A stretch of 54,441 bases of DNA from Candidatus Aenigmatarchaeota archaeon (GCA_018920245.1 JAHLMS010000001.1:9431-63871), one strand, 5' to 3'; counted from the stretch's first letter, positions 6,460-51,770 are shown. A program made the numbers and translations. The notes: generated from the sequence alone by a model not told the origin.

Positions 6460-6851
6460 GTGTGCCGGGCTTAGCCCGCCTTCTGCGAACCCTTTCTTTG
6501 GCAAAGAAGGCGTTCATGGAAAGAAACCATGACGCCAATAGCCATTTCATTAGCAGGGTTGACAGCATTCGTCTGGCCACGACGGCCAGAGGCCGTCATA
6601 GCGTTTAGCTGGGTACCCGGCCCTCCTTCATCATCAGGCCTGCTTCCCATTGCACCTTGCCAGTTTAAGCGTTTCAGCCGGAACATGTAGTGGCATTGAC
6701 GGCATTTACGCCATCGTTGCATTGTCGCTCCACTGAACGCACCCAACCCTCTCGAGTTGGTCACTTTCGTGACGGCAAGTGGCTGCGCCACTGATGGTGG
6801 ACGGAGCTTAGCTCACTGCTCGCGCAGCGATAGCTGTCTGCCCGGCTCACC
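6460..6851 (-). ncRNA. rnpB: Structured RNA, most likely RNase P RNA
   Basis: This region has no credible CDS. A terminal helix pairs GGUGAGCCGGGC with GCCCGGCAC. There is a P3-like hairpin with a GCGA loop followed by UAAGCUCCGUCC (compare GAAAGUCCGGGC). The 3' element CAGAAGGCGGGCUAAGCC resembles ACAGAACCCGGCUUA. A TATA box lies about 25 nt upstream on the minus strand. Confidence 0.5.
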
Positions 6852-6871
6852 AAAAGGATTTAAGTTTTCAT

Positions 6872-6882
6872 GGTTTAAAAAG
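6872..6882 (-). promoter_or_regulatory. TATA box (CTTTTTAAACC on the minus strand) upstream of the putative RNase P RNA
   Basis: An AT-rich TATA-like element 22-30 nt upstream of the RNA 5' helix. Confidence 0.4.
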
Positions 6883-6886
6883 TTTT

Positions 6887-7270
6887 ATGAATTTCAAAGA
6901 ATACAAACTTAACATCGATAAGCTCTGCGATTCTGAATCTATAGTCGAGCATGATCACTATTTTGCCGCGCAAGCACTCATCGATACAACAAAAGAAAAC
7001 GATGGTTCATACTGCCTTTCACGGATACAAAATTGTAAGCTGCATAACCAGGTCAAGAATCTAATATCCCTCTTCAAGAAGGGTGATGGCGTCAGCGCAA
7101 AGCTGCTAAAGATTGCCGCAATCTATCATGGTTCATGCTTCCTTGCATGTGCTCCTGTCGAACTTGATATACAAGATTTTCTCGAAGAAGGTTTAGAAGA
7201 GGTAAATTATCATCCGAACTCTGTGCAGCTCAACCAACAACTGAATATTGAAGAAGGCTGCAGTTTTTGA
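6887..7270 (+). CDS. Hypothetical protein
   Basis: An ORF of reasonable composition with no recognisable motif. Confidence 0.4.
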   Translation: MNFKEYKLNIDKLCDSESIVEHDHYFAAQALIDTTKENDGSYCLSRIQNCKLHNQVKNLISLFKKGDGVSAKLLKIAAIYHGSCFLACAPVELDIQDFLEEGLEEVNYHPNSVQLNQQLNIEEGCSF

Positions 7271-7302
7271 ATTAAAACAAATTGTGACCAGCAGAGATTT
7301 GA

Positions 7303-7323
7303 GGGGTCATAGCAGGTATCAAA
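7303..7323 (-). other. 3' strand of the 23S rRNA processing stem
   Basis: The minus-strand UUUGAUACCUGCUAUGACCCC is complementary to GGGUCAAUAGCAGGUGUCAAA at 11374..11395. Confidence 0.7.
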
Positions 7324-7652
7324 AAGCATTGGCCATTGGGGGCTCCGAGCTGAACACGTCGCCGAAGCTTCGTGCTTACACCCGAGCTCCATCAAGCGGG
7401 TCGTCTAGCCCGCGGCCATCGCCTCTTTTTCCCGGACGGTTCGGGCTTAGTTCGGCGCACTGCTACAGCTAGGTTCCTTCTGAATGCTGTAGCTAGCGCT
7501 ATGCCTTCAGCCCTTACCGCGTATCGCGTAGCTGCCCGGCATTGCCTTTCGACAACCGGTCAACCAGTGGCGACGAACGCGCGTTCCTTTCGTACTTGCG
7601 CATTCTTCGGGTCAGGCGACTCGCACCCTCGGAAGATATAAACCATACTGTC

Positions 7653-7858
7653 TTTGTCGTCTCGCGTGGGCAAACACAAAGATACTTTACCGTAACGGGT
7701 ATCATGCTCTCATAGCTAGCCATAGCTAAAGCTCGGCATGTCATCATGGTTACGATGTGTGAAAACCGGTCATAAGGGGTTTAGTTGCTCATTGCAGCTT
7801 GCGCTGCTAGCATTACTTCAGATGTTTTCATCCCGGACCGAAGACGCCCACGTCAAGA
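7653..7858 (-). other. ORF-less intron of about 206 nt in 23S rRNA. Boundaries are accurate to a few nt.
   Basis: The conserved CGUCGUGA|GACAG (E. coli ~2593-2602) is split. The insert termini are complementary (GACGUGGGC...GCCCACGC), and the exon GUCGU pairs with the intron ACGAC. Confidence 0.7.
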
Positions 7859-8414
7859 TCACGACGTATTGAACCCAGCTAACGTCCCCCTTTAATCAGT
7901 AAACCCCTGCACCCTTGGCCGCTACTGCACGGCCAGGAGGGGGGGAGCCGACAGCGAGGTAGCAACGCGCGGGGTCGATAGGAGCTCTCGCCCGCCACGA
8001 CTCTGTTATCCCCGGGGTAGCTTTTCTGAAGTTACCGATATCCATCAAGGACGCTCGGCATATCGCTAGCTCATGCTTTCGCAGCTGGATGCCTTGCTGT
8101 GCAGCATCCAGTCAAGCCGGCTTTTGCGCTTGCACTCTACTCCAGATTTCTGACCTGGATGAGCCGACCTTAGAGCACTCTTGATCTCCTGTCAAGAGTG
8201 TACCGCCCCAGCCGAGCGGCCCACCAATCGGTGTCCCCCCGAGTCGAGGGTTAGCCATGCGCCCACGAGATGGCAGTGTTACATTGTCGAGTATCCAACA
8301 TCCGAAAATGTTGGCATGACCTCTCCTGCCTACGCTATGAAATCGCAAACACACAGCAACGACAGGCTGCCGCAGAGCTCCACGGGGTCTTCTCTTCCCA
8401 CCGAGGGTCAGTGG

Positions 8415-8458
8415 CCTTCTGGCGAACGGCTAGTGAAGCCAGAAGCTCGCGCTAGCCG
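8415..8458 (-). other. Possible micro-insertion or mini-intron of about 44 nt in 23S domain IV/V
   Basis: Extra sequence CGGCUAGCGCGAGCUUCUGGCUUCACUAGCCGUUCGCCAGAAGG sits between GGUGAAAAU and CCACUGACCC...GAAGACCCCGUGGAGC, compared with the archaeal consensus as I recall it. It contains two interleaved inverted repeats. Confidence 0.35.
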
Positions 8459-8570
8459 ATTTTCACCACTATAGCAGGTTCGCCAGGTTCCAGCCCGGGA
8501 CAGCGGGGAAGTCGTTAAGCCCTTCATGCGGGTCGCCAATTAAGCGACAAGGGATTACGCTACCTTAAGC

Positions 8571-9293
8571 TCACTGACTCGCATTACTGCGAGAGTCGGA
8601 CTTTATCATCACCCGTTTGTGGGTGTTCGACGTAAAGTCTCTGAGGAGCTGCTTGCTCTAATTCATTCATTATATCTTCCAATTTACGTCTTCTTTGTTT
8701 TCCGGCTAGATTCATTTCAAACGCAAGTTTGACCAAGCGTTTGAAGCCGCTGATGGTGTGATGTTCTTTGTTTTCCATTGCCAAGACGATTTCACGGAAA
8801 ATCCGAAAGTCATGCATCTTAGCAATCGGTGGATAACGCTCAAAGAAGTTTATAACCTTCTCTTTGAGCTGCCTGCGGTTATCGACAAGATAAACCAGCA
8901 GGTCTTTCTGTCCGGGCTTCTCGATTATTCTTCCGCAAGATAACACATCCAAAAACTTCTCTAAGATAATTCTGTTGTTCTTGTGCTGTGTAACTTGAAA
9001 GAGCGGATCGAGAACTACCCCGAATCTGGTACCTTTCTGGCGTTTTAACGCGACACTGAAGCAACCTTCAGCATCGGCAAAACCAAGCAAATACCAGCTC
9101 AAATTTCGCTTCTTGCTCAGAAGCTTTCTTGCGATTCTTTGCTCCATATTACTCACCTCTTTGTGAGCAAGCAGTTTCCTGCTGATTGCCCCACATTTGC
9201 GAGCGCGGATTTTTCCTTTCTCAGGACCGCGTGCTTCTTGGGTTCCCAGCATATTGTCGAATTTATTGACCGCCTTAAGTTCATTTTGAGCTA
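8571..9293 (-). mobile_element. 23S rRNA intron of about 723 nt carrying a LAGLIDADG homing endonuclease gene. Probably an archaeal bulge-helix-bulge type.
   Basis: The conserved H69/H71 junction is split into ...GGUAACUCUGACCGU | insert | CUUAAGGUAGCGUAAUCCC. The intron ends can pair (GCUCA/UGAGC). The ORF fills nearly the whole insert, leaving no room for a group I core. Confidence 0.8.
8584..9147 (-). CDS. LAGLIDADG homing endonuclease with a single motif (homodimer type)
   Basis: It has the motif YLLGFADAEGCF. The ATG at 9147 is preceded by GAGGTGA, although the ORF stays open to 9252. It lies entirely within the rRNA intron. Confidence 0.8.
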   Translation of the reverse strand: MEQRIARKLLSKKRNLSWYLLGFADAEGCFSVALKRQKGTRFGVVLDPLFQVTQHKNNRIILEKFLDVLSCGRIIEKPGQKDLLVYLVDNRRQLKEKVINFFERYPPIAKMHDFRIFREIVLAMENKEHHTISGFKRLVKLAFEMNLAGKQRRRKLEDIMNELEQAAPQRLYVEHPQTGDDKVRLSQ

Positions 9294-10443
9294 ACGGTCA
9301 GAGTTACCGCCGCCGTTTACCGGGGCTTGGGGCGATTGGAATCGCCTTTAACACACCGGCACTGGGCAGGCCTCACTGACTGTACAGAGCGTTTCCGCTT
9401 AGCAGTCAGCTGTGTTTTTGTTAAACAGTCGCTTCCCCCTTGTTAGTGACACCTGCGCACTTCTGCGCAGGCACCCCTTATACCGAAGATACGGGGCCAG
9501 ATTGCCGAGTTCCCTGGACTGGTGTCTCCTGACACGCCATTGCCTTTTCAGCAAGGGGCACGTGTGTCCGTTCTTGGTACGGGCACGGTGCGTCGTTCCC
9601 GCCTTCCTTTTCATGGTCTCTGGGAATTTTCCCAATTCCCGCTTGCGCAGAAACTATGCACGCATTCAGCTCCTTCTCTCCTTGACGGAACTCCGGAGCT
9701 TTCGGCGCTCAACTTACGTGGGAATATCCCAAAGCGTCGGAATGCGGGCTTGCGTTGCCGCAGCTAGCACCGTGGTCACGGAATATTAACCGTGTTCCCT
9801 TTCGCCAGCGTCAGTTAAGGGCTGGCTTAGGACCGACTGACTCCCGGCCCAAAAAAGTTGCCGGGAAACCCTTGCCCTTTAGGCGGAGAGGATTCCAACC
9901 TCTCTTTGCTGTTACTACCGGCAGGATTATCGATGCTGGCCGGTCCATCCCTGCTCACACAGAGACTTCTGCCCAACCAGCACGCCTTCCTACGCTATGG
10001 CTTTCGCCATCCCCGGTCTCGGCCCTGCACTTACCCCCGTCCATTTTGGCCGCACCGGCCCTCGAGAGGTCCGCTGTTACGCGTTGTTTGACGGATGGCT
10101 GCTTCTAAGCCTACCGCCCTCCTGTCTTGGGACCGGCACCAGCTTCGTGTATTAGTGCAGAGTTAGGGGCCTTAACCAGAGGCTAGTTTGTTCACTTTTC
10201 GGACACCGAGCTTACCCCAGTGCCCTCACTCCCGCGTTCTACGAGCCCGGCAGATTATGAGTTTGTCAGGGATGCCGCCGTTGTTGTGGCATAGGTCGCA
10301 GAGCGACCAAAAGGCGATTTTCGCTCGCCTATGCATTCACAGCTTAACACCCCAAACAGTGCTTTACCCCACCGGGACTCTCCCGCGAGGCTGTCCTGAG
10401 GGACATTTCGGAAGGAACCAGCTATCACCGCTCTCGATTGGCT

Positions 10444-10488
10444 TTTGATGACCAGCTCCGCTGTTCGACAAAGTCAGCAAAGCTGATT
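10444..10488 (-). other. Possible micro-insertion or mini-intron of about 44 nt in 23S domain II
   Basis: The conserved GGGGUGAAAGGCCAAUC is interrupted to read GGGGUGAAA[AUCAGCUUUGCUGACUUUGUCGAACAGCGGAGCUGGUCAUCAA]AAGCCAAUCGAG. Confidence 0.35.
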
Positions 10489-11373
10489 TTCACCCCTAAT
10501 CCCAGGTCACCCGAGTGATTCGCAGCTCAACACCGGTATCAGCCCTCCACGGGCCTTTCGGCCCGCTTCAGCTTGCCCAGGATTAGATCGAGCGGTTTCG
10601 GGTCTTGCGCCCGTGACTACCCGCCCTTTCAGACGGCGCCCCTGACGCCTTGCAGCGCTGCGGGCTTGTCGCTTTCGCTACGGTTACCTGCTTGCGCAGT
10701 TAGCCTCGCCACGAGCACAAACTCCCTGCCTCGTGTTTCGAAACGAACGTCATAACCCTGTAAACGGCCGCTCGTACACACTGCTTGCGCAGTTTTCCTT
10801 CGCGATCGCACCTTTCGGGCCATGACTGACTTTTACCAACTGGTTTCGGGGTCTTTTCACCTTCGGTGAGGAATACTTTTCAGCTTTCAGTCACCTTACT
10901 TAGTTCGCTATCGGACTCGCGAGATATTTAGGGTTGGCGGTTGATGCCCGCCGTCTTCCGCCTGCATATCCGAGCAGACGTACTCGATTCCTACAATCGA
11001 CCCTACGGTCTTCACTTACGGGGCTATCACCCTCTGCGGCGCGCCGTTCCAGGCTACTTCAGTTCGACCATCGGGCCGTGCGTAGGTTCCACATCTTCGG
11101 TGCATTACTGCACAGAATTCGGTTTGCCCTGTTCCGCTTTCGATCGCCTTTACTTACGGAATCACATTTGTTTTCTCTTCCTCCGCTTAATAAAATGCTT
11201 TAATTCAGCGGGTTCCCGCTCCTCACGGAGCACCGGCCGAAGCCGGTATGATGTCACATTCGGGAATGGCTGGTTCTAAGGCTGCATGCGCCTCGCCAGC
11301 CCTTTTCGCAGCTTGCTACGCCCTTCATCGGTCTCGCGAACCCAGCCGTCCACCAGCTGGTTTCAATTGCGTG

Positions 11374-11395
11374 TTTGACACCTGCTATTGACCCT
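11374..11395 (-). other. 5' strand of the 23S rRNA processing stem
   Basis: It is complementary to 7303..7323 (see that feature). Confidence 0.7.
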
Positions 11396-11614
11396 TTCCT
11401 CTGACTTTGTGTAGCCTGTCTATATCATTTTGCAATAATATTCACAGGTCTCACAAAGTCACTTTCCTCTGCTGGTCTCATTGACAATAATGTCTCTTGA
11501 GGCTCATAGGATAACAGTGTGCAAAGACAACCGAAGGTCATCAATGCCTGTTCATTCATAGCCTCGTTCGCGACTCACGTTACCGTCTTGTTCTCATAGG
11601 GCTCGACAGCTACT

Positions 11615-11659
11615 CCGATTGTCATCGCGAACAACTAGACGACGTAGGTCGTCTGTACC
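11615..11659 (-). repeat. Leader repeat module, copy B: a GACGAC...GTCGTC hairpin plus GUUCGCGAUGA
   Basis: The plus strand reads ccgattgtCATCGCGAacAACtAGACGACgtagGTCGTCtgtacc, which aligns with 11826..11868 and 11931..11970. Confidence 0.55.
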
Positions 11660-11825
11660 GTTCACTCATTTTGGGACGGTCGATTCATCGCCCTCGATTT
11701 ATCAACCCAACGATCAGTGTCGCGATTTGTTGACCCTTCCACCGCAAGGGCATCCTTGCAGTGTGCACGTGTGGCATGACAGCCGAAGGCTGTCCATGCG
11801 TGTACCGCGTCAGTTACCCCATGGG

Positions 11826-11868
11826 CCATTCATCGCGACGAACAGACGACGTTGCGCGTCGTCATACC
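11826..11868 (-). repeat. Leader repeat module, copy A
   Basis: The plus strand reads ccattCATCGCGAcgAACAGACGACGttgcgCGTCGTCatacc. Confidence 0.55.
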
Positions 11869-11930
11869 TTCGCTCAGCCGCGTTTGCTGCATTTCATCCG
11901 CGGTATTTTTGCGCGTGTATGGTGCACGCG

Positions 11931-11970
11931 CATCACAGAACAGCACGACGACCATAGGTCGTCATTTCTG
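11931..11970 (-). repeat. Leader repeat module, copy C (more diverged)
   Basis: The plus strand reads CATCACAGAACAGCACGACGACCataGGTCGTCatttctg. Confidence 0.45.
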
Positions 11971-12186
11971 TTCATGTGATCATGATTTATTGGTTTGGGA
12001 GGATTTTGATAATCTGTGAGAATGAGCTTCATCTCGTCGCCGAATCCGCCTAAACAGGCAGTGCCGGCCAAAGTTCTGACGGCGTCGTGCACCGTTCAGC
12101 CATGCGGCCGACGACCTGTGGTTCCAATGCTTGTCTATTCAACAGGCATACACCCACCGTTTTAGTGAACAAAGATATCTCCGTAG

Positions 12187-12204
12187 AGTATTTAAAGCTT
12201 AATT
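12187..12204 (-). promoter_or_regulatory. BRE/TATA promoter of the 23S rRNA transcription unit
   Basis: The minus strand reads AATTAAGCTTTAAATACTC, which contains a TTTAAATA TATA box. It lies just downstream of the apgM stop. Confidence 0.55.
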
Positions 12205-12224
12205 GTGCATACATCTGAAATTTT

Positions 12225-13469: not shown

Positions 13470-13475
13470 ATCGCC

Positions 13476-14929: not shown

Positions 14930-14933
14930 GCAC

Positions 14934-15929: not shown

Positions 15930-15959
15930 GCAGTAAATTGCAAAGGCCGACTTAAATTA

Positions 15960-16373: not shown

Positions 16374-16398
16374 TACTGGAAGAATGAAATTTATAAAC

Positions 16399-17691: not shown

Positions 17692-17692
17692 C

Positions 17693-25651: not shown

Positions 25652-25721
25652 AGTAGAGCTATTTTTAAAGTGAAGTATTTAAAGATAGTAGGGCCTGACG
25701 GCAGAAGGCCGTCTGGCTGTC

Positions 25722-25842
25722 GGCCCTCGTAGTCTAGCTTGGATAGGACATGAGGTTGCGGGCATTTTTTGCACTTTGCGCAAAACCTGCATTGAAAGGC
25801 AAAAACCTCAGGACCTGGGTTCGAATCCCAGCGAGGGCACCA
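25722..25842 (+). tRNA. tRNA-Arg(GCG) with an intron of about 44 nt at the canonical 37/38 position (about 25761..25804). CCA is encoded.
   Basis: The acceptor is GCCCUCG/CGAGGGC, the D arm GUCU/GGAC, the anticodon stem UGAGG/CCUCA with loop UUGCGG...A, and the T arm CUGGG-UUCGAAU-CCCAG. Confidence 0.75.
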
Positions 25843-38494: not shown

Positions 38495-38603
38495 GCCTCG
38501 GTGGCTCAGTTGGTAGAGCGGTCGCCTCGTAGGGCATGACGGCCTTCGGCCGTCTGTTCATGTGAGCGACAGGTCGCGAGTTCGATTCTCGCCCGAGGCT
38601 CCA
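38495..38603 (+). tRNA. tRNA-Thr(CGU) with a 33-nt intron at 37/38 (about 38532..38564). CCA is encoded.
   Basis: The acceptor is GCCUCGG/CCGAGGC with U73, the D arm GCUC/GAGC, the anticodon stem GUCGC/GCGAC with loop CUCGUA...A, and the T arm GCGAG-UUCGAUU-CUCGC. The intron core hairpin is GACGGCCUUCGGCCGUC. Confidence 0.8.
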
Positions 38604-39322: not shown

Positions 39323-39470
39323 GCGCCCGTAGTCTAGCGGTAACCGACGGCCAAAGGCCGTCTATGCCGTATGGATCTGAGCTTCCCAAGAACCCTTTTG
39401 TTCCGCAAAAGCGTTCACGGAAAAACGGAAAAAGCTCGTGACGCGGGTTCGAATCCCGCCGGGCGCACCA
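39323..39470 (+). tRNA. tRNA-Gly(CCC) with two introns: about 30 nt in the D-loop (about 39343..39372) and about 44 nt at 37/38 (about 39389..39432). CCA is encoded.
   Basis: The acceptor is GCGCCCG/CGGGCGC, the D stem GUCU/GGAU split by an insert containing GACGGCCAAAGGCCGUC, the anticodon stem UGAGC/GCUCG with loop UUCCCA...A, and the T arm GCGGG-UUCGAAU-CCCGC. The mature length sums to 74 nt. Confidence 0.7.
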
Positions 39471-39703
39471 ATTTGGACAATTATGACAATGTTTCGAGTC
39501 TGTGAATCTTGAGGTAAGGTGCACCGTCCGCTGCATTCGGACATATCGGACATCTGAGCGGGGGTACTTAAATTCTGAACTGCTAAATAATTTCAGATCC
39601 CTGCGGCATAAAGGAACCAGAATGACGACCTTCAGTCGTTTCTGCAATGGTTTAATTCACGAATGAAATTATATTTAAATGTTTTTCCACTCAAGCATTA
39701 GAA

Positions 39704-40138: not shown

Positions 40139-40248
40139 GGGCCGGTGGTCTAGTGGTAAGGCATTGATGATGCTTCGCATCATCATCCCATATTGACGTC
40201 ACCCTGACACGGTGGAGGTCGAGAGTTCGAATCTCTCCCGGCCCACCA
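40139..40248 (+). tRNA. tRNA-Val(GAC) with a single intron of about 35 nt in the D-loop (about 40159..40193) and an uninterrupted anticodon loop. CCA is encoded.
   Basis: The acceptor is GGGCCGG/CCGGCCC, the anticodon stem-loop is UCACC-CUGACAC-GGUGG, and the T arm is GAGAG-UUCGAAU-CUCUC. The D region is split by an insert with the hairpin GAUGAUGCUUCGCAUCAUC. Confidence 0.7.
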
Positions 40249-40251
40249 GTC

Positions 40252-41538: not shown

Positions 41539-41543
41539 ATGGC

Positions 41544-42473: not shown

Positions 42474-42485
42474 TACATCATCCTC

Positions 42486-43340: not shown

Positions 43341-43375
43341 GCCTATAATGCTTCAAATAGACAAATAAATCTATG

Positions 43376-44332: not shown

Positions 44333-44371
44333 TTTCTCACTCTTCTCTATTCATTTTGCAAATATAAAACC

Positions 44372-46543
44372 TTATCCTCCTATGGGTGCCTTAATCATTG
44401 GCAGCTGTATCTCTGAAACAGCTGTGTATGTGTAGTCTACAGTGCCGCGGAAGCCTAGCGTCTTGCTTTCCAGGTCTTCCAACGTGTATGTGAACCTGAA
44501 GGCGTATGTCGCAGTCTTGTCTGGTTGCAGGTTGTTGATGTTGCAGCTCACGGTCTTGTAAAGAATGTTACCAACAGTGTCTATGCTATCTGTACAATTG
44601 CTCAAACCGCTCGGCGCACCCACATTCCTTATGCCATCAAGGGTTATGCCTGTGAGCGTCGAAGGCAACCAAAGCTTGAGCGTGCCTCCAGTTACATTGC
44701 CCCTGCCTGTGTTCGTTATCGATATCCGGCCGAATGCCTCTTCTCCTGAACGCAACGGCTGGTCCTGCACATAGATGCCAACCTTCACAGGACCGCCGCT
44801 GTACCGCGACTCTGAATTGAACAGCTTTATCTGATTGTTGAGCAACTTCCGGTTGAACACATCTTTGTTCATAACTTCGATATTATCCATGCTCACGTTC
44901 GATGTGTAGCTGAAGCTGTAGCTTAATGGGAGTATAATTGTCCAGTCTGCATAGCTGTATATAAGTATGCCTGGGTCAGGACAGTAGGTTTTTACCTCTG
45001 TGGGGTCCGTGCATGTCCTTTTCTTGAAAACATAACAGTCAGACTGGCAATTACCAATCGCGTCCTTGCAGTCGCCCTCACAGAGGTTAGGATATTCAGA
45101 CGTATCAACAGGTGCAAAGCAGTCGCATATCCTCATGGTATTGGCCCAACCAGAATTATAATCGCCTTTCTTGCCACACTGGAATGTCAGCGACTTGACA
45201 TCACCAGGTGGACTGTTTGGCCTTTCGCTCTTCCATTCGCATGTGCTGCCAGAGTTCTTGCCTGTATCAGCGCCTGTGCATGATGTGAACTCACAGGCAT
45301 CAAAGGCTAGAGTCACACGACCCCAATCTGGGTGTGCTACAGAAATGTTCCTTGGGTCTATGAGCTTCAGCTGTCCGAACGTGACAGCGATGTTCCGTGC
45401 AGTGAAACAGCCCTGGTTCTCAAGCTTGACGCTGCCTATTAGCGGGATTGTTGGATCGATGTTCGGCACTGCTTCGACATAGTTTATAGCCTTGAACTCG
45501 GTCTGTTCTATAGCCTTAACAGTACCACCTTCGATAAGTTTTGCATTAGCTTCCTGTTTTCGCCTTTCCTGCTCGGCATAATAGCATGAGGGACAAGTCA
45601 ACAACATTTTGGCATCCGATAGGGACTGCCCTACTGACGAGAAAACCTCTCCCATGGGCTGTCCAATTGTTGAAATGGCGGTATTGACCTGCGGCCACCA
45701 AGCACCGAATACTGAGCTACCTATTACGCCTGTATATTGATATGAGAATGCCATTATTGCTAAGAAGAGAATTATTAATCCTATGTATGGCCTGCCCTCA
45801 GGACCTGCGAAGTAGCCCATGATTATGCCAAGGCCGAATATAAGTGACAAAACCCATCCTAAAGCTGCTGTCGTCGGTCCCAAGACCATTTGGATAACAG
45901 GTATCGCTCCTGCTAATGCCAGACCGAGGAAGACTGCATTGGCCCTGTTCTTGCTCTGCTCTCCGGGCGCCCAACCTGTGGGTTTTGTGGATTTTTCGAA
46001 AATATAAATCTCTACCTTTCGGCCGACCTCCACTGGTATCTTGAGCGGCAGATTGACATAATAGGCTGCAGTTAGCAAGAACAAGGCTATAGCGGGGTTG
46101 ACTATTGCCAACGTTATGCCACCACCAACAAGAACGAAGAATATCAAAGATCCGTATATTCCAAGACTTAACCACGGCTTGCCTTTTGCAAATAAACCAA
46201 GTACTATGAAAAGCGGCACGAAGATGAGGATAGAGACTATGCTACCAATGAGCGCGTCGAATGTGCCCTGTAGAATGAAGTAAAAAACTATCGCTATTGC
46301 GAGGCCAAGAATCGTGCGTACCCAAGCGCTCGCTGCCTTGTGTGGTTCATCCTCGCGGTAACTTCCTGGCAACATGAAATAGCCGACAAAGAGCGTTGCC
46401 AGGCTGAGAATAGGATATATCATATAAAACTGCCATGCGACCAGCACTATTGCGAGCACCAGGATGAAGTCGCGCAGTATCATCGCGGCTATGACACCAC
46501 CATGTATCTTCATCGGCTCTTGGTACAATGCTTCATAATCCAT
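44372..46543 (-). CDS. Large polytopic membrane protein (about 9-10 TM) with a Cys-rich extracytoplasmic C-terminal half related to the cluster paralogues (cluster gene 4)
   Basis: The N-terminal ~330 aa are hydrophobic helices. The C-terminal ~390 aa have many Cys (CEFTSC, CDCF, CEGDCKDAIGNCQSDC) and end VDYTYTAVSEIQLPMIKAPIGG. AGGTG lies upstream of the ATG. Confidence 0.6.
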   Translation of the reverse strand: MDYEALYQEPMKIHGGVIAAMILRDFILVLAIVLVAWQFYMIYPILSLATLFVGYFMLPGSYREDEPHKAASAWVRTILGLAIAIVFYFILQGTFDALIGSIVSILIFVPLFIVLGLFAKGKPWLSLGIYGSLIFFVLVGGGITLAIVNPAIALFLLTAAYYVNLPLKIPVEVGRKVEIYIFEKSTKPTGWAPGEQSKNRANAVFLGLALAGAIPVIQMVLGPTTAALGWVLSLIFGLGIIMGYFAGPEGRPYIGLIILFLAIMAFSYQYTGVIGSSVFGAWWPQVNTAISTIGQPMGEVFSSVGQSLSDAKMLLTCPSCYYAEQERRKQEANAKLIEGGTVKAIEQTEFKAINYVEAVPNIDPTIPLIGSVKLENQGCFTARNIAVTFGQLKLIDPRNISVAHPDWGRVTLAFDACEFTSCTGADTGKNSGSTCEWKSERPNSPPGDVKSLTFQCGKKGDYNSGWANTMRICDCFAPVDTSEYPNLCEGDCKDAIGNCQSDCYVFKKRTCTDPTEVKTYCPDPGILIYSYADWTIILPLSYSFSYTSNVSMDNIEVMNKDVFNRKLLNNQIKLFNSESRYSGGPVKVGIYVQDQPLRSGEEAFGRISITNTGRGNVTGGTLKLWLPSTLTGITLDGIRNVGAPSGLSNCTDSIDTVGNILYKTVSCNINNLQPDKTATYAFRFTYTLEDLESKTLGFRGTVDYTYTAVSEIQLPMIKAPIGG

Positions 46544-46554
46544 TAAAACACCTA

Positions 46555-47004
46555 TTACTCGAAGAATGGCGGCTTCTTAACCTCTTCTTCCTCCTCTTCT
46601 TTCTCTTCTTCCTCTTTTTTGGGTTTCCTTACTTCTATGACTATGTGCTTGACATAGTGCTCCTCGGCCTTTTGCATCAGCTCATCAGCCGATGGAATAA
46701 TACTCCTAAATCCCAAAAGTAGCAGCGCAGCACCGAGGAGCGGGAAGCCGAAAATCGCTACCAGCCCACCCACAAGAACGAAAATGAAAAGTTCGAGCCA
46801 TCTGGCCTTCAGAAGTTCCTTGCCAATTCCTGTCAAGTGCTCGCGTTTGAGCACGTAAACTGGTACTTTGGCCTTTTCCGACCCTTCTTTCGTAGGTGCG
46901 GCTGGCCGGGGTGGTACACCATGGCGAGACATATGCTGCTCGTAGTTCGATACATCAGATACATCAACTTTCTCCTCACAGATTGGACATTTAATAATCG
47001 GCAT
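46555..47004 (-). CDS. C2H2/Zn-ribbon N-terminus, two TM helices and an acidic Glu/Lys tail (cluster gene 3)
   Basis: MPIIKCPICEEKV...YEQHMSRH, then LELFIFVLVGGLVAIFGFPLLGAALLLLGF, then KKEEEEKEEEEEEVKKPPFFE. Confidence 0.5.
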   Translation of the reverse strand: MPIIKCPICEEKVDVSDVSNYEQHMSRHGVPPRPAAPTKEGSEKAKVPVYVLKREHLTGIGKELLKARWLELFIFVLVGGLVAIFGFPLLGAALLLLGFRSIIPSADELMQKAEEHYVKHIVIEVRKPKKEEEEKEEEEEEVKKPPFFE

Positions 47005-47090
47005 TGCTATCGTTTACAAATAGCACTCACGGGGTTAAAAAGTTATCATGTGCTGGGCCATTTTTATTTCACGTACATCAAAATGCTAAA

Positions 47091-47204
47091 TTAAAGGCTT
47101 CGCACAGGCCAGCCGCCTGGCGGCTTTTTCATACCGCAGTTAGGGCACATATTCTTGTAAATTTCAATGGCGTTCCTGCAACGCACACAATAGCTCTCAG
47201 ACAT
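47091..47204 (-). CDS. 37-aa Zn-ribbon protein (cluster gene 2). Below the ORF-track cutoff.
   Basis: My own translation is MSESYCVRCRNAIEIYKNMCPNCGMKKPPGGWPVRSL. GAGGTG lies 6 nt upstream of the ATG. Confidence 0.45.
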   Translation of the reverse strand: MSESYCVRCRNAIEIYKNMCPNCGMKKPPGGWPVRSL

Positions 47205-47213
47205 CCTAACACC

Positions 47214-48011
47214 TCATGTAAAATAAATGATTATCTCGGCGCTGTCAATGGTGTATCTTGTGCCAGCCGGGGCTGATATCTTGATATAGTTGGTGCCCAC
47301 GACAAACTTGTCAGGCGTGAAGTCCTTGACAATGTTCATGCTAGTGCCCATGTATATGTTCTCATTATTCAATGTTACATTCAGCTGGCCTGTGCCCTCC
47401 CTGCGCTTGACATTCATCACCAGCCTGCCCTTTGTTGCAAGCGCCACATCCTTGCTCTCAAGCGTGAAGTTGAATGATTTCTCCAAAGCACCCTTCCAGT
47501 TCACGGTCGCGTTCGCGGTGAACTTGTAAATTGTCGGCGCCCAGAAGCGCCAGCCACTGGACTCAGCCTTTATCTCGAGCAAGTTCTCTTCTTTCAATAA
47601 ACCTTGACCGAAGACAATCGAATGGTCACCCGGATAGGCATAATCATTATACAGCTCCTGTCCGTTCAAGGCTACGATGAGCCTGCCGTAGAGATTCGAA
47701 TCGTTTACATGCAGTATCACATGGCCACCTGTCACGGATGCCGGGTCAGATATCAAGAAGCTGTAGGCCTTGTCCTCGCCAGAGAGCAGGCCGCGGCTGA
47801 CGGTACCGGAGATGTTCGCAACAGGCAGCTCAGCTGAAACGTAGCCTACTGAAAAGTTGCCACTGATGGGTATGTGCCTATACTCTTCTGTAAGCCCACC
47901 GCCAACATGAGGCTGCGGCGAAGGCGGTACTGTGACCACTGCGCCGAAAGCCAGCAGCAGGCCAGCAAATATCAGCACTGCTACAATAAGGACCGGAATG
48001 AACTCAGGCAT
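47214..48011 (-). CDS. N-terminally anchored beta-rich extracytoplasmic protein (cluster gene 1)
   Basis: It has a TM helix (FIPVLIVAVLIFAGLLLAFGAVV), then a Pro-rich linker and a beta-rich domain. I prefer the ATG at 48011 over the TTG at 48017. Confidence 0.5.
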   Translation of the reverse strand: MPEFIPVLIVAVLIFAGLLLAFGAVVTVPPSPQPHVGGGLTEEYRHIPISGNFSVGYVSAELPVANISGTVSRGLLSGEDKAYSFLISDPASVTGGHVILHVNDSNLYGRLIVALNGQELYNDYAYPGDHSIVFGQGLLKEENLLEIKAESSGWRFWAPTIYKFTANATVNWKGALEKSFNFTLESKDVALATKGRLVMNVKRREGTGQLNVTLNNENIYMGTSMNIVKDFTPDKFVVGTNYIKISAPAGTRYTIDSAEIIIYFT

Positions 48012-48049
48012 GTGCAATATTAAATACAGGCATGCATAAAAATGTTAGC

Positions 48050-49060
48050 ATGCGCTCGACTTTCGACCTCAAGCATAATATAGCCAAGCTCACACCTGAG
48101 GACAACGATGACGTCTGGCTGTTACATGATATCATTATTCCTGGCACGCTTGTCACTGCCAAGACAGAGCGCAGCGTCCAGGTGGAAAGGGGTGATGGTG
48201 CGGAGGTTGTTGGTCGGAGACCTGTCACACTTACGTTGCTTGTGGAAAAGGCGGAAATGGCAGAGCGGTTGCGACTTACTGGAAAAATCGTGGAGGCGCC
48301 ACCTGACATAGGCAAAGGCTACCACAGCATTGATGTCAAGCCCGGAACGTTCCTCACCGTGCAGAAACCGTGGAAAACCTGGGAAATAAACAAGATAAGG
48401 GCTGCTGCAAAAAAGGCCGAGCCTGTACTGATTCTTGTTATGGATGAGCGGGATGCCGATATATGGCTACTTACAGACAGGGAGAAACATATTCTGCACA
48501 TATCCGGCCCAGGGCTTTCAAAGGCCGAGGGTGTTTCACGCAAGCCGGAGTATTTCGGCAGCATCGCATCAGCATTGAAGCAACACAGTGGGAATGTAAA
48601 GCATGTTATAATCGCTGGCCCAGGCTTCACGCGGGAGGAGTTTGCAAGGTTCATCGCAGAGCGTGAAAAATCGTTGGCAGAAAAGACGATACTTGATGCC
48701 GTAAGCCACACAGGCGAGCCTGGGCTTGTAGAACTGCTACGCAGAGGCACGCTCGAAAGACTGAAAGCAAGCAGTCGTGTGGAAGCCGAATCGAGGGCTG
48801 TTGAAAACCTGCTAACAGAGATAGGCAAAGATGGATTGGCCGTTTATGGTGTTGAACAAACAAAACAAGCGATAGAGGCCGGCGCTGTCGAACTATTGCT
48901 CGTTTCGGACAAAAGAGTCCGTGAGCTTGCCGAAGTGATGGAAGCAGCTGAAAAAACACGAACAACTGTCATGATAATCAGCTCCCAGCATGCTGCAGGC
49001 GAACGGTTGCTGGGCATGGGTGGCATAGGCGGTATATTAAGATATCAATTGAAATATTGA
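48050..49060 (+). CDS. Pelota (Dom34) ribosome-rescue / mRNA-surveillance factor
   Basis: It has the eRF1-like three-domain pattern, with the C-terminus VELLLVSD...AGERLLGMGGIGGILRY. The ATG at 48050 lies about 25 nt downstream of ATTAAATA, suggesting a leaderless transcript. The ORF is open from 48032. Confidence 0.8.
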   Translation: MRSTFDLKHNIAKLTPEDNDDVWLLHDIIIPGTLVTAKTERSVQVERGDGAEVVGRRPVTLTLLVEKAEMAERLRLTGKIVEAPPDIGKGYHSIDVKPGTFLTVQKPWKTWEINKIRAAAKKAEPVLILVMDERDADIWLLTDREKHILHISGPGLSKAEGVSRKPEYFGSIASALKQHSGNVKHVIIAGPGFTREEFARFIAEREKSLAEKTILDAVSHTGEPGLVELLRRGTLERLKASSRVEAESRAVENLLTEIGKDGLAVYGVEQTKQAIEAGAVELLLVSDKRVRELAEVMEAAEKTRTTVMIISSQHAAGERLLGMGGIGGILRYQLKY

Positions 49061-49070
49061 TGGGATTCAA

Positions 49071-49457
49071 ATGGCAAAGAAACCTTTCAGGCATGCGCTT
49101 GTAAAGCACCATCTGCCAGGCATGCGCAGCGCAGTACTGGGTGTGGTGTTAGCGATTCTAATAATAATTGCTGCTACCAGCTGCCCTGTGAAAGGAATAG
49201 AGCTTGGCGTATGCAGTGCTAGTTTCATTTTGCTGGCTGTGCTTGCTATTCTTTTTATCCCAAAACAGGTGCGCCATCTCTGGCATACTATCGAGCACTC
49301 TGACATGCTCTATGGTATAACAGCAATTGGTACGGCAGTGGCTGCGCTGGTGTTATTGCCACTGAACGCAATCATGCGTCTCACTGCTGCGGTCGCAATC
49401 TTCGTTCTGCTAATGCTTTTCAAGTGGGCCATGGACAGAACGTTCAAGTCGCGCTGA
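49071..49457 (+). CDS. Small membrane protein (hypothetical)
   Basis: It has three to four hydrophobic helices. Confidence 0.4.
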   Translation: MAKKPFRHALVKHHLPGMRSAVLGVVLAILIIIAATSCPVKGIELGVCSASFILLAVLAILFIPKQVRHLWHTIEHSDMLYGITAIGTAVAALVLLPLNAIMRLTAAVAIFVLLMLFKWAMDRTFKSR

Positions 49458-49533
49458 TTTGTATATGAAAAAAAATTATATTGGAAAACGCCAGAGAATG
49501 AATATGGCAAATTCCTGCTCGAGAAATTCCTCA

Positions 49534-50010
49534 TCAAGGGCCCTGAGTAGCGAACACCATTACTGCGTCCCACTCTGATTCAGTTTTAACTATAAAGCTT
49601 TCTTTGGGTATTAGTCCGTGAAATTTATCAGTAAGCTCCTTAAGCTTTCTCTCACAGTTCCATTTGTTGCACGGTAGGGTCACGATGAGTTTTCCTTTCG
49701 GTGAAAGAACACGCACGAGTTCATCTGGGTTTTTCAATAGGTGAATTGTATCGATGCAGAAGACTGTGTGGAACCTTCTGCTTTTGAACGGCATCTCATC
49801 CCCGCTAGCAAGGACACGGGGTCCGGAGAACTTTTTAAGATATTCTGGATTGTTGTCAAGCGCTATCGCAAATATTCTTTCTTCAAGAAAGCCTGGTCCC
49901 GAGCCCACATCAAGAGTAGTTCCAGAAACTTTAACCCTCTCAAGTATCTGCCTTATCTTTTCGCGTTGGGTTTTGGCCATCCATTTGGTATAGAGCTTCC
50001 TGCATATCAT
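49534..50010 (-). CDS. Class I SAM-dependent methyltransferase
   Basis: It has motif I TLDVGSGPGFL, and later LSPKGKLIV. Confidence 0.65.
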   Translation of the reverse strand: MICRKLYTKWMAKTQREKIRQILERVKVSGTTLDVGSGPGFLEERIFAIALDNNPEYLKKFSGPRVLASGDEMPFKSRRFHTVFCIDTIHLLKNPDELVRVLSPKGKLIVTLPCNKWNCERKLKELTDKFHGLIPKESFIVKTESEWDAVMVFATQGP

Positions 50011-50639
50011 ATATCAAACACGAAAACAAGTGCTGCCACTACGTATCCGAAATCTTCCGGAACTTTGTCCCAACCCTTAATTTCGAATCTGAAAAACTTT
50101 GATGCATTTTCCTCAAGGTACTTCAGAAACTCCCGCTCAGGGCTCTTCCAGCCGTCGAAATGCTTTCCGAGCGCTGCCTGCTGTTCAGCCCATTCCTTGC
50201 GGTTCATGAGCAGCTCAGATGGGTTGTTTGGATTGTATATCATCAGATTTTCAGCCTCAGCCATCTGGATAAGGGAGAGCATTAGCGTCTCCTTGACGGC
50301 GCGCTCCTCCTTGTGTCCGTGGTCCTCGACAACGTACGCCTTCTTTACCATGCCATCCTTGTTTCTCATGTAGCACCAACCGACTCCGGCTGCGATGCTG
50401 CAACCCTTTGTTCCAAGCTCCTCTGCCATCACACAGAACGTTATGGCGCTGTGCGGTATTGTTGGTGGGTTGCTGAGCTGTACGGCATCCGGATCGAGCA
50501 CAGAGCTGACAGGAACGAGATTGCACTGATTGATATGAGCCTTAATGAAGGCTTCCTGAACCGTGCCCTTCTTGGTTTCTCCGCTTGCACGGCCACTCGT
50601 CACAAAGAACTTTTTTGCCACAGGCATCCAAAAATTCAT
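50007..50639 (-). CDS. pdaD: Pyruvoyl-dependent arginine decarboxylase-like protein (PdaD) with a C-terminal insertion
   Basis: FFVTSGRASGETKKGTVQEAFIKAHINQCNLVPVSSVLDPDA parallels the PdaD N-terminus and its self-cleaving SS site. There are about 45 extra residues before the last strand. The start is uncertain among 50663, 50639 and 50627. Confidence 0.6.
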   Translation of the reverse strand: MNFWMPVAKKFFVTSGRASGETKKGTVQEAFIKAHINQCNLVPVSSVLDPDAVQLSNPPTIPHSAITFCVMAEELGTKGCSIAAGVGWCYMRNKDGMVKKAYVVEDHGHKEERAVKETLMLSLIQMAEAENLMIYNPNNPSELLMNRKEWAEQQAALGKHFDGWKSPEREFLKYLEENASKFFRFEIKGWDKVPEDFGYVVAALVFVFDI

Positions 50640-50785
50640 GCCAACAGAATGATTGCGGTCCAATATAAATATTTCATCCGAGCGTTGTTATATCGACATC
50701 GGCCACATTATAGTTGTTGTAATCTTGGTGTTGGTGACAGCGGCAATAATAGAGACGTTAATACTCAGCACAGTCTTCTGAGAAG

Positions 50786-50927
50786 TGGTGGACCGGGCGG
50801 GATTCGAACCCGCGAACTCTACCAGACGGGGCAGAAACGACCTTCAGTCGTCATTCTGTTTGCCAAGGTAGCGTCAGTGCAGCAAGACAGCCTTAGGCCG
50901 TCATTCGTTTCCACTAGACCACCGGCC
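50786..50927 (-). tRNA. tRNA-Ala(GGC) with two introns: about 30 nt in the D-loop and about 36 nt at 37/38. CCA is encoded.
   Basis: The acceptor GGGCCGG/CCGGUCC carries the Ala identity pair G3:U70. The anticodon stem is CUACC/GGUAG with loop UUGGCA..., and the T arm is GCGGG-UUCGAAU-CCCGC. The intron hairpins are GACGGCCUAAGGCUGUC and CAGAAUGACGACUGAAGGUCGUUUCUG. Confidence 0.7.
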
Positions 50928-50962
50928 CGTGAACGAATTGTTTTCGCAGAATATTTAAATGC

Positions 50963-51070
50963 TGGTGGGCCGGGCAAGATTCGAACTTGCGATATCCACC
51001 TTTCAAGGCAATGACGTGCTTTGCACGTCTACCTGTAAGGGTGGCGTCTTAACCGCTGGACCACCGGCCC
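50963..51070 (-). tRNA. tRNA-Val(UAC) with an intron of about 32 nt at 37/38. CCA is encoded.
   Basis: The acceptor is GGGCCGG/CCGGCCC, the anticodon stem is CCACC/GGUGG with loop CUUACA..., and the T arm is GCAAG-UUCGAAU-CUUGC. The intron hairpin is GACGUGCAAAGCACGUC. Confidence 0.75.
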
Positions 51071-51106
51071 GATAGATTATTAAGTGCTCGATGTTTAAAA
51101 ACTATC

Positions 51107-51565
51107 ATGCAACCTGAGCGCGAGTGGGCAAAGTTGAGGAAAAAATACAGGAAACTACCTGATTGGAAATGGCTGGATGCAAATTTCCGCATCAAGATCG
51201 AGGAAGGCAGGCTCGTTGACAACGTGCGGATTGGTATAATGGACAAGCTGGACCATATCGCACATGACATGATAGAGCCTATAATCGGCGGTGGGGAGAA
51301 CTACTGTTGCTACTTTGAACGCCGCATGCTCACCGAAGCGGAGCGCGAACGTATGTTCGATATTTACAGACAACTAATGGCAATCCTGTGGGTCGGAAAC
51401 CATATTGCTGTCGAATTCTCGGAAAAGGACTTTGCCGAATGGGTGACCACAGTCTACAATGATTGGGAAAAGCTGAAGCCTGTCATAACGGAGCTGTTTG
51501 ACAAGATAGCTGTCGGCTGGACTGAGTACAAGAAACCTTCAACAGAAACCGCGTACCATGGATAA
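51107..51565 (+). CDS. Hypothetical protein
   Basis: An ORF with coding-like composition and no motif recognised. Confidence 0.4.
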   Translation: MQPEREWAKLRKKYRKLPDWKWLDANFRIKIEEGRLVDNVRIGIMDKLDHIAHDMIEPIIGGGENYCCYFERRMLTEAERERMFDIYRQLMAILWVGNHIAVEFSEKDFAEWVTTVYNDWEKLKPVITELFDKIAVGWTEYKKPSTETAYHG

Positions 51566-51581
51566 TACCATAAAAAATCAA

Positions 51582-51710
51582 TGGTGGGCCGGAAGAGATT
51601 TGAACTCTTGACCACCAGTGTTTACACTTTTTGGAACGTTGTCGGACTGACGACCGCCGGTCGTCCAGTTTTATAAGACTGGCGCTCCAACCTGGCTGAG
51701 CTACCGGCCC
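51582..51710 (-). tRNA. tRNA-Ile(UAU) with an intron of about 51 nt at or near 37/38. CCA is encoded.
   Basis: The acceptor is GGGCCGG/CCGGCCC with A73, and the D arm is GCUC/GAGC. The anticodon stem CCAGU...ACUGG has loop CUUAUA (anticodon at plus coordinates 51673..51675). The T arm is AAGAG-UUCAAAU-CUCUU, and the intron hairpin is GACGACCGGCGGUCGUC. Confidence 0.7.
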
Positions 51711-51770
51711 TTTATGCCTGCTGTGCCCTGACGGCCTTCGGCCGTTGGCTCTCAACAGGCATAGGAATAA

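Follow-up and report, generated by a model that had tools for sequence, protein, structure and literature searches.

The window analysed here is a 54-kb stretch (54,441 nucleotides, 48% G+C) of the genome of Candidatus Aenigmatarchaeota archaeon, a DPANN archaeon, and is 99.5-99.8% identical to contigs of the metagenome-assembled genomes GCA_039091605.1, GCA_039090675.1 and GCA_039091035.1. Along it lie the genes for RNase P RNA, 23S rRNA and seven tRNAs, and in and around these genes we found 18 related hairpins with stems of the type GAC...GUC (the GAC family), which are the subject of this report. The 23S rRNA gene has no 16S gene upstream of it in the window. In window coordinates, the RNA genes are as follows.

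6460-6850, minus strand: RNase P RNA (Rfam, 55 bits; gathering score, 84)
7319-11377, minus strand: stand-alone 23S rRNA gene with a LAGLIDADG intron inside
11378-12200, minus strand: 23S leader (~850 nt from promoter to 23S), with its own TATA box near 12196
25723-25839, plus strand: tRNA-Arg(GCG), intron-containing
38495-38600, plus strand: tRNA-Thr(CGU), intron-containing
39323-39467, plus strand: tRNA-Gly(CCC), intron-containing
40139-40245, plus strand: tRNA-Val(GAC), intron-containing
50789-50928, minus strand: tRNA-Ala(GGC), intron-containing
50966-51070, minus strand: tRNA-Val(UAC), intron-containing
51585-51710, minus strand: tRNA-Ile(UAU), intron-containing

The copies of the hairpin, with the units that carry them, are these.

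6575-6605, minus strand: RNase P copy 2, a 31-nt insertion (AACGCUAUGACGGCCUCUGGCCGUCGUGGCC) with the hairpin at 6581-6597
6689-6722, minus strand: RNase P copy 1, a 34-nt insertion with the hairpin GAUGGC-GUAAAU-GCCGUC at 6698-6715
11521-11551, minus strand: 23S leader copy F, GGCAUU-GAUGACC-UUC-GGUUGUC-UUUGC
11631-11657, minus strand: 23S leader copy E, a 27-nt insertion with the hairpin (A)GACGAC-CUAC-GUCGUC(U)
11773-11802, minus strand: 23S leader copy D, GCAUG-GACAGCC-UUC-GGCUGUC-AUGC
11840-11866, minus strand: 23S leader copy C, a 27-nt insertion with the hairpin GACGACG-CGCAA-CGUCGUC
11938-11973, minus strand: 23S leader copy B, a 36-nt two-tier hairpin, GAACAG-AAAU-GACGACC-UAU-GGUCGUC-GUG-CUGUUC
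12069-12101, minus strand: 23S leader copy A, a 33-nt insertion with the hairpin AACGGUG-CACGA-CGCCGUC at 12078-12096
25691-25722, plus strand: copy in the 5' leader of tRNA-Arg(GCG), GGGCCUGACGGCAGAAGGCCGUCUGGCUGUCG
38532-38564, plus strand: 33-nt intron of tRNA-Thr(CGU) at position 37/38, hairpin GACGGCC-UUC-GGCCGUC
39344-39372, plus strand: D-loop intron (~29 nt) of tRNA-Gly(CCC), hairpin GACGGCC-AAA-GGCCGUC
39618-39644, plus strand: spacer copy, CAGAAUGACGAC-CUUCA-GUCGUUUCUG
40159-40192, plus strand: D-loop intron (~34 nt) of tRNA-Val(GAC), hairpin GAUGAUG-CUUCG-CAUCAUC at 40166-40184
50825-50860, minus strand: 36-nt intron of tRNA-Ala(GGC) at 37/38, CAGAAUGACGAC-UGAAG-GUCGUUUCUG
50877-50908, minus strand: 32-nt D-loop intron of tRNA-Ala(GGC), hairpin GACGGCC-UAA-GGCUGUC
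51002-51033, minus strand: 32-nt intron of tRNA-Val(UAC) at 37/38, hairpin GACGUGC-AAA-GCACGUC
51639-51665, minus strand: hairpin insertion of ~27 nt nested in an older intron of tRNA-Ile(UAU) (whole intron, 51621-51671)
51716-51760, minus strand: copy in the 5' leader of tRNA-Ile, a 45-nt long hairpin with the core AACGGCC-GAA-GGCCGUC

A preliminary description of this DNA had claimed at least 15 such hairpins. All 15 sites listed there hold one, but the number was an undercount: we added the members at 6698-6715 in RNase P RNA, 12078-12096 in the 23S leader and 40166-40184 in the D-loop of tRNA-Val(GAC). The second of these is the sixth leader copy; six had been claimed and five listed. Some stems are imperfect (one A/G mismatch in the tRNA-Arg leader copy, G.U pairs in others), and the tRNA-Ile leader copy and 23S leader copy A begin with AAC. 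A covariance model was built from the 18 copies and searched on the window and on ~225 kb of sequence from relatives; in the window it found no further copy, the best non-member scoring 14.4 bits (E=1.4).

Exact 7-bp stems of the form GACNNNN-loop(3-5)-NNNNGTC occurred 8 times in the window, versus a mean of 0.095 and a maximum of 2 in 200 dinucleotide shuffles, a strong enrichment. Stems of this class with at most one mismatch numbered 15, versus 2.3 in the shuffles. Borne out as well was the claim that none lies in protein-coding sequence: coding sequence makes up 83.3% of the window and holds 0 of the 18 copies, RNA genes and leaders (11.4%) hold 17, and other spacers (5.3%) hold 1. Counted by length, the 17 copies lie within ~2.2 kb of small RNA and leader sequence (23S excluded), versus one within 2.9 kb of ordinary spacer; if non-23S RNA and spacers are assumed to be equally open, the hand-computed probability of at least 17 of 18 copies falling in RNA is ~6e-6. 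The site of the spacer copy (39618-39644) showed no RNA family match.

Two other identities were considered for the hairpins and rejected. They are not intrinsic terminators: a U-run follows none of the 18 copies, most of which lie within transcripts, upstream of or inside the mature RNA. Nor does AUGACGA...CUG represent a C/D-box small RNA, as a D box is absent and the Rfam hits are not significant. A search with the pattern ATGACGRCCN{3,5}GGYCGTCTGTTC gave 9 matches in metagenomes, where ~5 are expected by chance, and 1 in viral contigs; the matching contigs (metagenome, 44-70% G+C, eight of them 53-70%; viral, 66% G+C) showed a tRNA context in no case, and the search was uninformative on the distribution of the family.

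The copies conform to the consensus (G)GCAU-GACGRCC-NNN-GGYCGUC-(A/U)UGCC. In the 16 columns outside the stem, the information content was 6.62 bits, versus 2.25±0.48 bits in random sets drawn from RNA regions; the maximum of the random sets was 4.49 bits, and 0 of 2000 draws reached the observed value. Certain outer-stem words (GAACAG/CUGUUC, GGCAU/AUGCC and CAGAA/UUCUG) recur across unrelated hosts, and the D-loop copy of tRNA-Val(GAC) has the same flank, GGCAUU, as 23S leader copy F. Sequence common to the copies beyond the stem points to common descent, and by this comparison of sequences the copies were shown to be related in that way. Were the hairpins instead of independent origin at each site, by convergent selection for a stable GC-rich hairpin or by local inverted duplication, the palindromes could have been seeded by GACG present in the adjacent host sequence, as at the tRNA-Ala D-loop (GGAA|UGACG) and in RNase P RNA (CUA|AGACG). 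However, the stem words GACGGCC and GACGACC recur while the loops vary, the flanks share significant sequence, and generic 7-bp hairpins are enriched only about twofold (24 versus 11.2), compared with ~80-fold for the GAC class. We therefore regard separate origins as highly improbable.

All 18 units folded alone (-8.6 to -26.7 kcal/mol; z, -1.6 to -6.3), among them the tRNA-Ile leader copy (-26.7 kcal/mol; z, -5.4), RNase P copy 2 (-22 kcal/mol; z, -6.3), 23S leader copy B (-20.1 kcal/mol; z, -6.0) and 23S leader copy D (-16.1 kcal/mol). GAC...GUC is nearly invariant among the copies; thus the sequence of the stem is conserved, not the pairing alone. Read on the transcribed strand, the non-Watson-Crick pairs of the stems were G.U in eight cases and A.C in two, and the flanking positions were U/U seven times and A/A once. 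Six loops are of the UUC type and three of the GAA type.

Relatives were reached via homologues of pelota, TruD and phosphoglycerate mutase and by exact-protein look-ups; a scan of genome contigs anchored on pelota had yielded two distant archaea and nothing closer. Gene order around the sites is largely conserved in them, and 16 of the 17 comparable sites were empty, with conserved or identical flanks. In all their contigs, the covariance model found the tRNA-Thr intron of one relative (L009) and nothing else.

In the 23S leader, the backbone including the promoter is strongly conserved in relatives L012 and L014 despite a 23S identity of only ~91%. Five clean window-only blocks of 33, 27, 25, 27 and 29 nt interrupt it, each with one family hairpin. 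Copy A, absent in L012 and L014, takes the place of the loop of a CGGCC/GGCCG host hairpin. Copy B lies within the conserved host stem AUCACA/UGUGAU, where the relatives carry an unrelated loop of similar length. Copy C sits in the GAAA tetraloop of a host module resembling a kink-turn (K-turn), the empty site being GAGUGCGAA^AGCACGAUGAA, and copy E in the GAAA loop of a second such module, for which L014 provides the empty site GAGCGCGAAA^GCGCGAUGAA. The 25-nt stretch of copy D and the 29-nt stretch of copy F are absent in L012 and L014; the latter takes the place of the UUU loop of GAUAAC/GUUAUC.

As in K-turn or K-loop sites for the protein L7Ae, two leader copies are preceded by GA and directly followed by GAUGA, and the preliminary description had taken this as a possible sign of L7Ae binding. 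That reading did not hold. The GAAA-capped module targeted by these two copies, GA-[GYGC-GAAA-GCRC]-GAU-GA, occurs in relatives without the hairpin, and the GAUGA that follows is therefore a feature of the host leader: GA and GAUGA sit in flanks conserved in L012 and L014, and the hairpin was inserted in the GAAA loop between them. Within the family unit, to judge from the unit sequences, K-turn geometry (a 3-nt bulge with tandem G.A pairs) cannot be drawn.

The leader also contains features of other kinds. Several K-turn-like modules of the form GA-[capped stem]-NNN-GA are present in it (in relatives, for example, CUGA-GUGC-GAAA-GCAC-GAU-GA), and these may be candidate L7Ae sites in a leader that chaperones pre-rRNA. 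At 11403-11463 on the minus strand there is an AU-rich long hairpin insertion of 61 nt, which belongs to a different family and has no counterpart in L012 or L014; the 10-nt direct repeat on its two sides (CAGAGGAAAG, at 11394-11403 and 11462-11471) resembles a target-site duplication.

RNase P RNA is 391 nt long in the window versus 298 and 295 nt in relatives, whose RNAs score above the Rfam gathering score; that of the window falls below it because of insertions. Compared with the RNAs of L012 and L014, copy 2 is a precise insertion between invariant flanks and lies in a joining region. Copy 1 (24.1 bits with the covariance model) is located in the loop of a GGAGC/GUUCC hairpin, assigned to P12 by position alone, and is absent from L012 and L014 (empty site, GGAGCGAAA^ACAUGUUCC). 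The 3' part of the same RNA carries a further 34-nt hairpin insertion (GGCGUCAUGG...CCAUGAACGCC; 6505-6538, minus strand), which is found in the window only and is absent in the conspecific contigs L018 and L019; the region around it differs wholesale from L012 and L014.

Removal of the seven copies from tRNA bodies yielded tRNAs identical or near-identical to intronless orthologues. The exons of tRNA-Val(UAC) are 100% identical in L004 and L007, which have no intron there, and in the same two relatives the tRNA-Ala orthologues are intronless at both sites. For tRNA-Gly and tRNA-Val(GAC), alignment to the tRNA model requires D-loop insertions of 31 and 36 nt, respectively; the D-loop of tRNA-Gly is intronless in L016 and L017, and that of tRNA-Val in L016. 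The tRNA-Ile genes of L004 and L007 contain a canonical bulge-helix-bulge intron of 26-27 nt without the hairpin, and the window intron consists of that sequence plus GACGACCGGCGGUCGUCAGUCCGACAA. Upstream of tRNA genes the situation is similar: in L009, a near-identical promoter region of tRNA-Arg is followed by UCAG alone before the tRNA 5' end, the 32-nt unit being absent, and in L007 ~22 nt without the hairpin separate the TATA box from tRNA-Ile. The sole copy common to the window and a relative is the tRNA-Thr intron, which has the same core in L009 (GGCAUGACGGCCUUCGGCCGUCUGUUC; 32.4 bits with the covariance model). It is absent from the tRNA-Thr genes of L010 and L016; for L017, absence is indicated by the covariance model, which found no copy in the locus.

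The preliminary description had offered two readings of the hairpins, a common origin as a mobile mini-element family and a common protein-binding or processing determinant, had allowed that both might be true, and had named absence from the orthologous introns and leaders of close relatives as evidence that would count against its proposal. Such absence is what we found. By that standard it refutes the determinant and leaves the mobile family untouched: the relatives' orthologous RNAs lack the element and therefore do not require the hairpin. A common origin, by contrast, is strongly supported by the flank information and the empty sites.

A narrower form of the determinant is that the lineage itself recruited the hairpin as a functional RNA signal, bound by L7Ae, the splicing endonuclease or another factor and coordinating the maturation of tRNAs, pre-23S rRNA and RNase P RNA. 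The conserved stem sequence would agree with this, as would the prevalence of G.U among the stem mismatches on the transcribed strand and the retention of all copies in four conspecific assemblies. In addition, by a count made by eye, the exons of tRNA-Thr seem to differ more between the window and L009 than the core of the intron does (the computed identity of the whole gene is 84%). On the other side, relatives at 91% 23S identity possess the same RNAs, including the tRNA-Val with identical exons, without the hairpin; the K-turn signature is that of the host leader and its geometry is missing from the unit; and the distance from the hairpin to the splice sites is variable (5' linker, 2-8 nt; 3' linker, 9-13 nt). 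We consider such a recruited determinant unlikely, and a conserved one is mostly unsupported.

Near-identical strains showed turnover. In L018, the hairpin of RNase P copy 2 differs at ~5 positions, which makes it identical to the tRNA-Thr-type core; in L021, the tRNA-Val(UAC) hairpin reads GAUGUGC, a G-C pair having become G.U. The 34-nt insertion of RNase P RNA and a 43-nt insertion of the 23S rRNA gene (8419-8461), the latter absent in L018, vary in presence among strains that are 99.5-99.8% identical.

Insertions outside the GAC family were seen in the same RNA genes. Lineage-specific insertions of 43, 53 and 44 nt in the 23S rRNA gene (8419-8461, 10283-10335 and 10447-10490, minus strand) form a hairpin or several hairpins; these three and the 724-nt LAGLIDADG intron (8570-9293, minus strand) are all absent from L012 and L014. 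tRNA-Gly has a second intron (39389-39432, plus strand), which in the window is 44-45 nt long and located at 37/38; in strain L001 (99.7% identity), the second intron is canonical, measures 15 nt (AAGCGCAAGCGGAUA) and stands at 28/29 (~9054-9075). The same 15-mer stands at 28/29 in the distant L017, and therefore the tRNA-Gly intron has been relocated within the species. tRNA-Arg(GCG) contains a 43-nt intron at 37/38 (25762-25804, plus strand) with a canonical bulge-helix-bulge junction and without the family hairpin; because it is missing from the L009 and L010 orthologues, it represents another recent intron gain, of a different family.

From the shared flanks, the empty sites and the confinement to RNA genes, the hairpins are probably copies of one lineage-specific family of self-folding insertions of ~25-36 nt, which recently multiplied in transcribed stable-RNA genes. 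The family looks like a mobile intron-like element and not like a conserved processing signal, and we infer that it is better described as selfish or neutral than as a required signal. Within the body of a tRNA, the unit would be the core of a relaxed bulge-helix-bulge intron that the splicing endonuclease and an RNA ligase must excise. The GC-rich hairpin would lengthen the inner helix of the intron, so that the insert could fold by itself, the host fold would stay intact and the junction would be presented as helix-loop-helix. In leaders, the unit would be discarded along with the leader, and RNase P RNA probably tolerates it as an expansion at the periphery.

The points that weigh against this reading concern sampling, polarity, the splice junctions and the route of spread. 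The survey of the host genome for hairpins covered this stretch only, and the sample of relatives is small. As the copies were picked as hairpins, statistics of pairing, such as the compensatory changes at pair 13-23 (GC in 9 copies, AU in 8 and UA in 1), are partly circular. As to polarity, the identities of the 23S rRNA (window-L012, 91.0%; window-L014, 91.2%; L012-L014, 89.6%) place the three lineages at about equal distances, and the comparison of the RNase P and leader sites is therefore unrooted; at these sites, loss in a common ancestor of L012 and L014 is formally conceivable. Outgroup data come from L016 and L017 and are confined to the Thr, Gly and Val sites.

Extended to the whole family, this would mean that the hairpins are ancestral, that the window keeps the old state and that the sampled relatives have lost them. 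Besides the unrooted sites, the tRNA-Thr copy common to the window and L009 would fit such a history. It would, however, demand the precise loss of 16 insertions, including some from contexts that are not spliced; the Thr, Gly and Val copies are likewise missing from L016 and L017, which are more distant; the copies are too alike to predate lineages differing by 9% in rRNA; and related mini-insertions vary among strains with 99.5% identity, so that gains or losses are current. Wholesale ancestral presence is thus very unlikely in our view. Gain is favoured because the copies are very alike, the sites of L016 and L017 are empty and it is implausible that insertions would be lost precisely where no splicing occurs.

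Nearly all filled-versus-empty pairs placed the insertion directly behind an A, in the terminal loop of a hairpin that the host RNA already possessed. The loops entered include GAA^A tetraloops, a terminal hairpin loop in RNase P RNA (GAAA^A), anticodon loops (A37^), D-loops and the loops of leader stems; the exceptions are RNase P copy 2, 23S leader copy D (host structure not assigned) and the copies immediately preceding two tRNAs. For the splice junctions, we coded the canonical geometry as a central 4-bp helix and 3-nt bulges cleaved after the second base, with outer and inner helices. Control introns were canonical: 4/4 central pairs were formed in tRNA-Ile of L004 (outer helix 6, inner 4), in the anticodon-loop intron of tRNA-Arg and in the 28/29 intron of tRNA-Gly in L001. 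The family introns did not conform and have relaxed junctions. At 37/38, the central pairs numbered 2/4 in tRNA-Thr (3/4 in that of L009), 1/4 in tRNA-Val(UAC) and 3/4 in tRNA-Ala with an inner helix of 0; in D-loops, they numbered 4/4 in tRNA-Ala with an outer helix of 0, at most 3/4 in tRNA-Gly and 2/4 in tRNA-Val(GAC).

At the boundaries of the RNase P and leader insertions a coherent splice motif is absent, and a strict search for the motif around every copy gave candidates that were all misplaced and lacked a coherent geometry. The copies in tRNAs have to be excised, presumably by a broadly specific endonuclease, although splicing by this enzyme is assumed; no gene in the window encodes the endonuclease type of the host lineage. 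An extra loop that goes together with disrupted tRNA genes has been reported for DPANN endonucleases (PMC5829648). For the tRNA copies, the suggestion that the hairpin may act as a stabilising core of relaxed bulge-helix-bulge substrates is plausible, given relaxed junctions in the family and canonical ones in the control introns.

A consistent target-site duplication was absent at 8 filled-versus-empty pairs, and defined termini were not found either; GACG beside two targets and CCUUACA/CCUUGAA at tRNA-Val(UAC) are suggestive of duplication only. No reverse transcriptase, transposase or other mobility gene was noted in the precomputed Pfam annotations, which cover most of the window, apart from its ends and two gaps. 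The spacer copy and the anticodon-loop intron of tRNA-Ala have identical asymmetric stems (CAGAA[UG]ACGAC / GUCGUUUCUG) and loops that are exact reverse complements (CUUCA versus UGAAG). To judge from the two sequences, this pair is a minute inversion of the hairpin loop; since only a DNA-level event can invert a loop on identical stems, such flips, with the UUC-type and GAA-type loops, tell against a purely RNA-level history.

For the route of spread, our preference, which falls somewhat short of even confidence, is for movement at the level of RNA: loops of abundant stable RNAs, if nicked or similar to a bulge-helix-bulge, would receive an excised intron by re-ligation, and the product would be copied back into DNA. 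Points for a link to RNA are the confinement to transcribed stable RNAs, the G.U mismatches of the stems and the U/U flanks. Nearly as likely is spread at the level of DNA, by targeting of palindromes or hairpins; a palindromic element of the repetitive extragenic palindrome (REP), miniature inverted-repeat transposable element (MITE) or GC-cluster type would have moved as DNA by a transposase or a process of replication or recombination, and targeting of DNA able to form hairpins, together with selection, would account for its confinement to RNA genes. This concerns only the route and not the family itself. The consensus is indeed a near-perfect DNA palindrome, both loop orientations occur on identical stems, one copy lies in a spacer without a known RNA gene, and a different hairpin insertion in the leader has the 10-nt direct repeat mentioned above. 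But an element moving as DNA should meet the fewest constraints in spacers, and random insertion followed by selection predicts the opposite of the distribution observed; the GAC family shows no consistent duplication or terminal signature; the G.U pairs and U/U flanks are biased to the sense strand; and the annotations over most of the window note no transposase. The most specific version, in which a mobile hairpin targeted to RNA genes spreads via the tRNA splicing and ligation machinery of the cell and has been caught while active, is doubtful. The excised unit would in that case be joined to hairpin loops of tRNAs, the pre-rRNA leader and RNase P RNA before a copy entered the genome, and the turnover among strains with 99.5% identity would show it at work.

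If the specific version is true, the transposition long postulated for archaeal bulge-helix-bulge introns would for the first time have a natural system in which it is tractable, and RNase P RNA and rRNA leaders would for the first time be seen to be colonised by such units. With clean filled and empty sites that have identical flanks, a single unit of ~30 nt, several RNA classes and variation among strains, the question of intron gain becomes directly testable. Apparently, neither RNase P RNA nor a conserved pre-rRNA leader is closed to intron-like units, which enter loops of K-turn modules in the leader. Annotation is affected as well: ARAGORN in default mode detected 0 of the 7 tRNAs of the window, and tRNA-Gly was missed by Rfam in gathering mode. 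Under standard RNA annotation, genomes like this one will seem to lack essential RNAs. Elsewhere in the window (~13.5-19.2 kb, minus strand), a cluster for the archaeal route of adenosine monophosphate (AMP) salvage adjoins the phosphoglycerate mutase gene; by precomputed Pfam annotation of a conspecific contig, it comprises genes for an AMP phosphorylase-like PYNP protein, an IF-2B-family isomerase and the RuBisCO large subunit.

Several known systems resemble the family in part. The intervening sequences in helices 25 and 45 of bacterial 23S rRNA (Salmonella, Campylobacter and Leptospira) measure at least ~100 nt, occur in rRNA only and are excised by RNase III, with the cut ends left unjoined. 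They have in common with the window family an extended hairpin in the terminal loop of a host helix, a sporadic occurrence among relatives and a host RNA that works without them; the window units differ in measuring ~30 nt, in forming one family over several RNA classes and in being, in tRNAs, spliced and religated. Small GC-rich palindromic mobile repeats include REP elements with their RAYT transposases, Rickettsia palindromic elements and the GC clusters of yeast mitochondria. Like the window family, they are short self-complementary units that multiply within a genome, and RNA genes and introns can harbour Rickettsia elements and GC clusters. REP elements lie outside genes, and protein genes too receive in-frame insertions of Rickettsia elements, whereas the window family has 0 copies in coding DNA and almost none in ordinary spacers. 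We know of no transposase associated with the window family and of no description of REP, Rickettsia or GC-cluster families in archaea.

Within a natural population of Caldiarchaeum subterraneum, close genomes vary in their tRNA intron content (Sugahara et al. 2012, PMC3293823), and intron gain has been linked to a 1.8-kb element encoding a recombinase (PMC3293823). Gain on a short timescale is common to both systems; the window units are only 25-36 nt long, and a mobility gene is not visible in the window.

The closest precedent is the transposition of introns in Thermoproteales, and the window family is of the same kind, with added features. Translocatable bulge-helix-bulge tRNA introns were described in that order by Fujishima et al. 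(2010, Mol Biol Evol 27:2233), as related in PMC4090602, PMC4033280 and PMC4390854; according to these accounts, the introns are absent from orthologous tRNAs of related species, which indicates recent intron gain. The mechanism of this transposition, inferred in 2010, is stated in PMC4090602 to be unknown. As in Thermoproteales, similar introns occupy different tRNAs and positions in the window (37/38 in tRNA-Thr, tRNA-Val(UAC) and tRNA-Ala; the D-loops of tRNA-Ala, tRNA-Gly and tRNA-Val(GAC)) and are absent from orthologous tRNAs of relatives, apart from the tRNA-Thr intron that one relative shares. The Thermoproteales hosts are crenarchaeal and that of the window family is a DPANN archaeon. 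The window family is further distinguished by a single conserved GC-rich hairpin core and by junctions that are relaxed instead of canonical. Finally, the introns of Thermoproteales are confined to tRNA genes as far as these reviews describe them, whereas 11 of the 18 copies in the window lie outside tRNA bodies, in tRNA 5' leaders, the pre-23S leader, RNase P RNA, another intron and a spacer.

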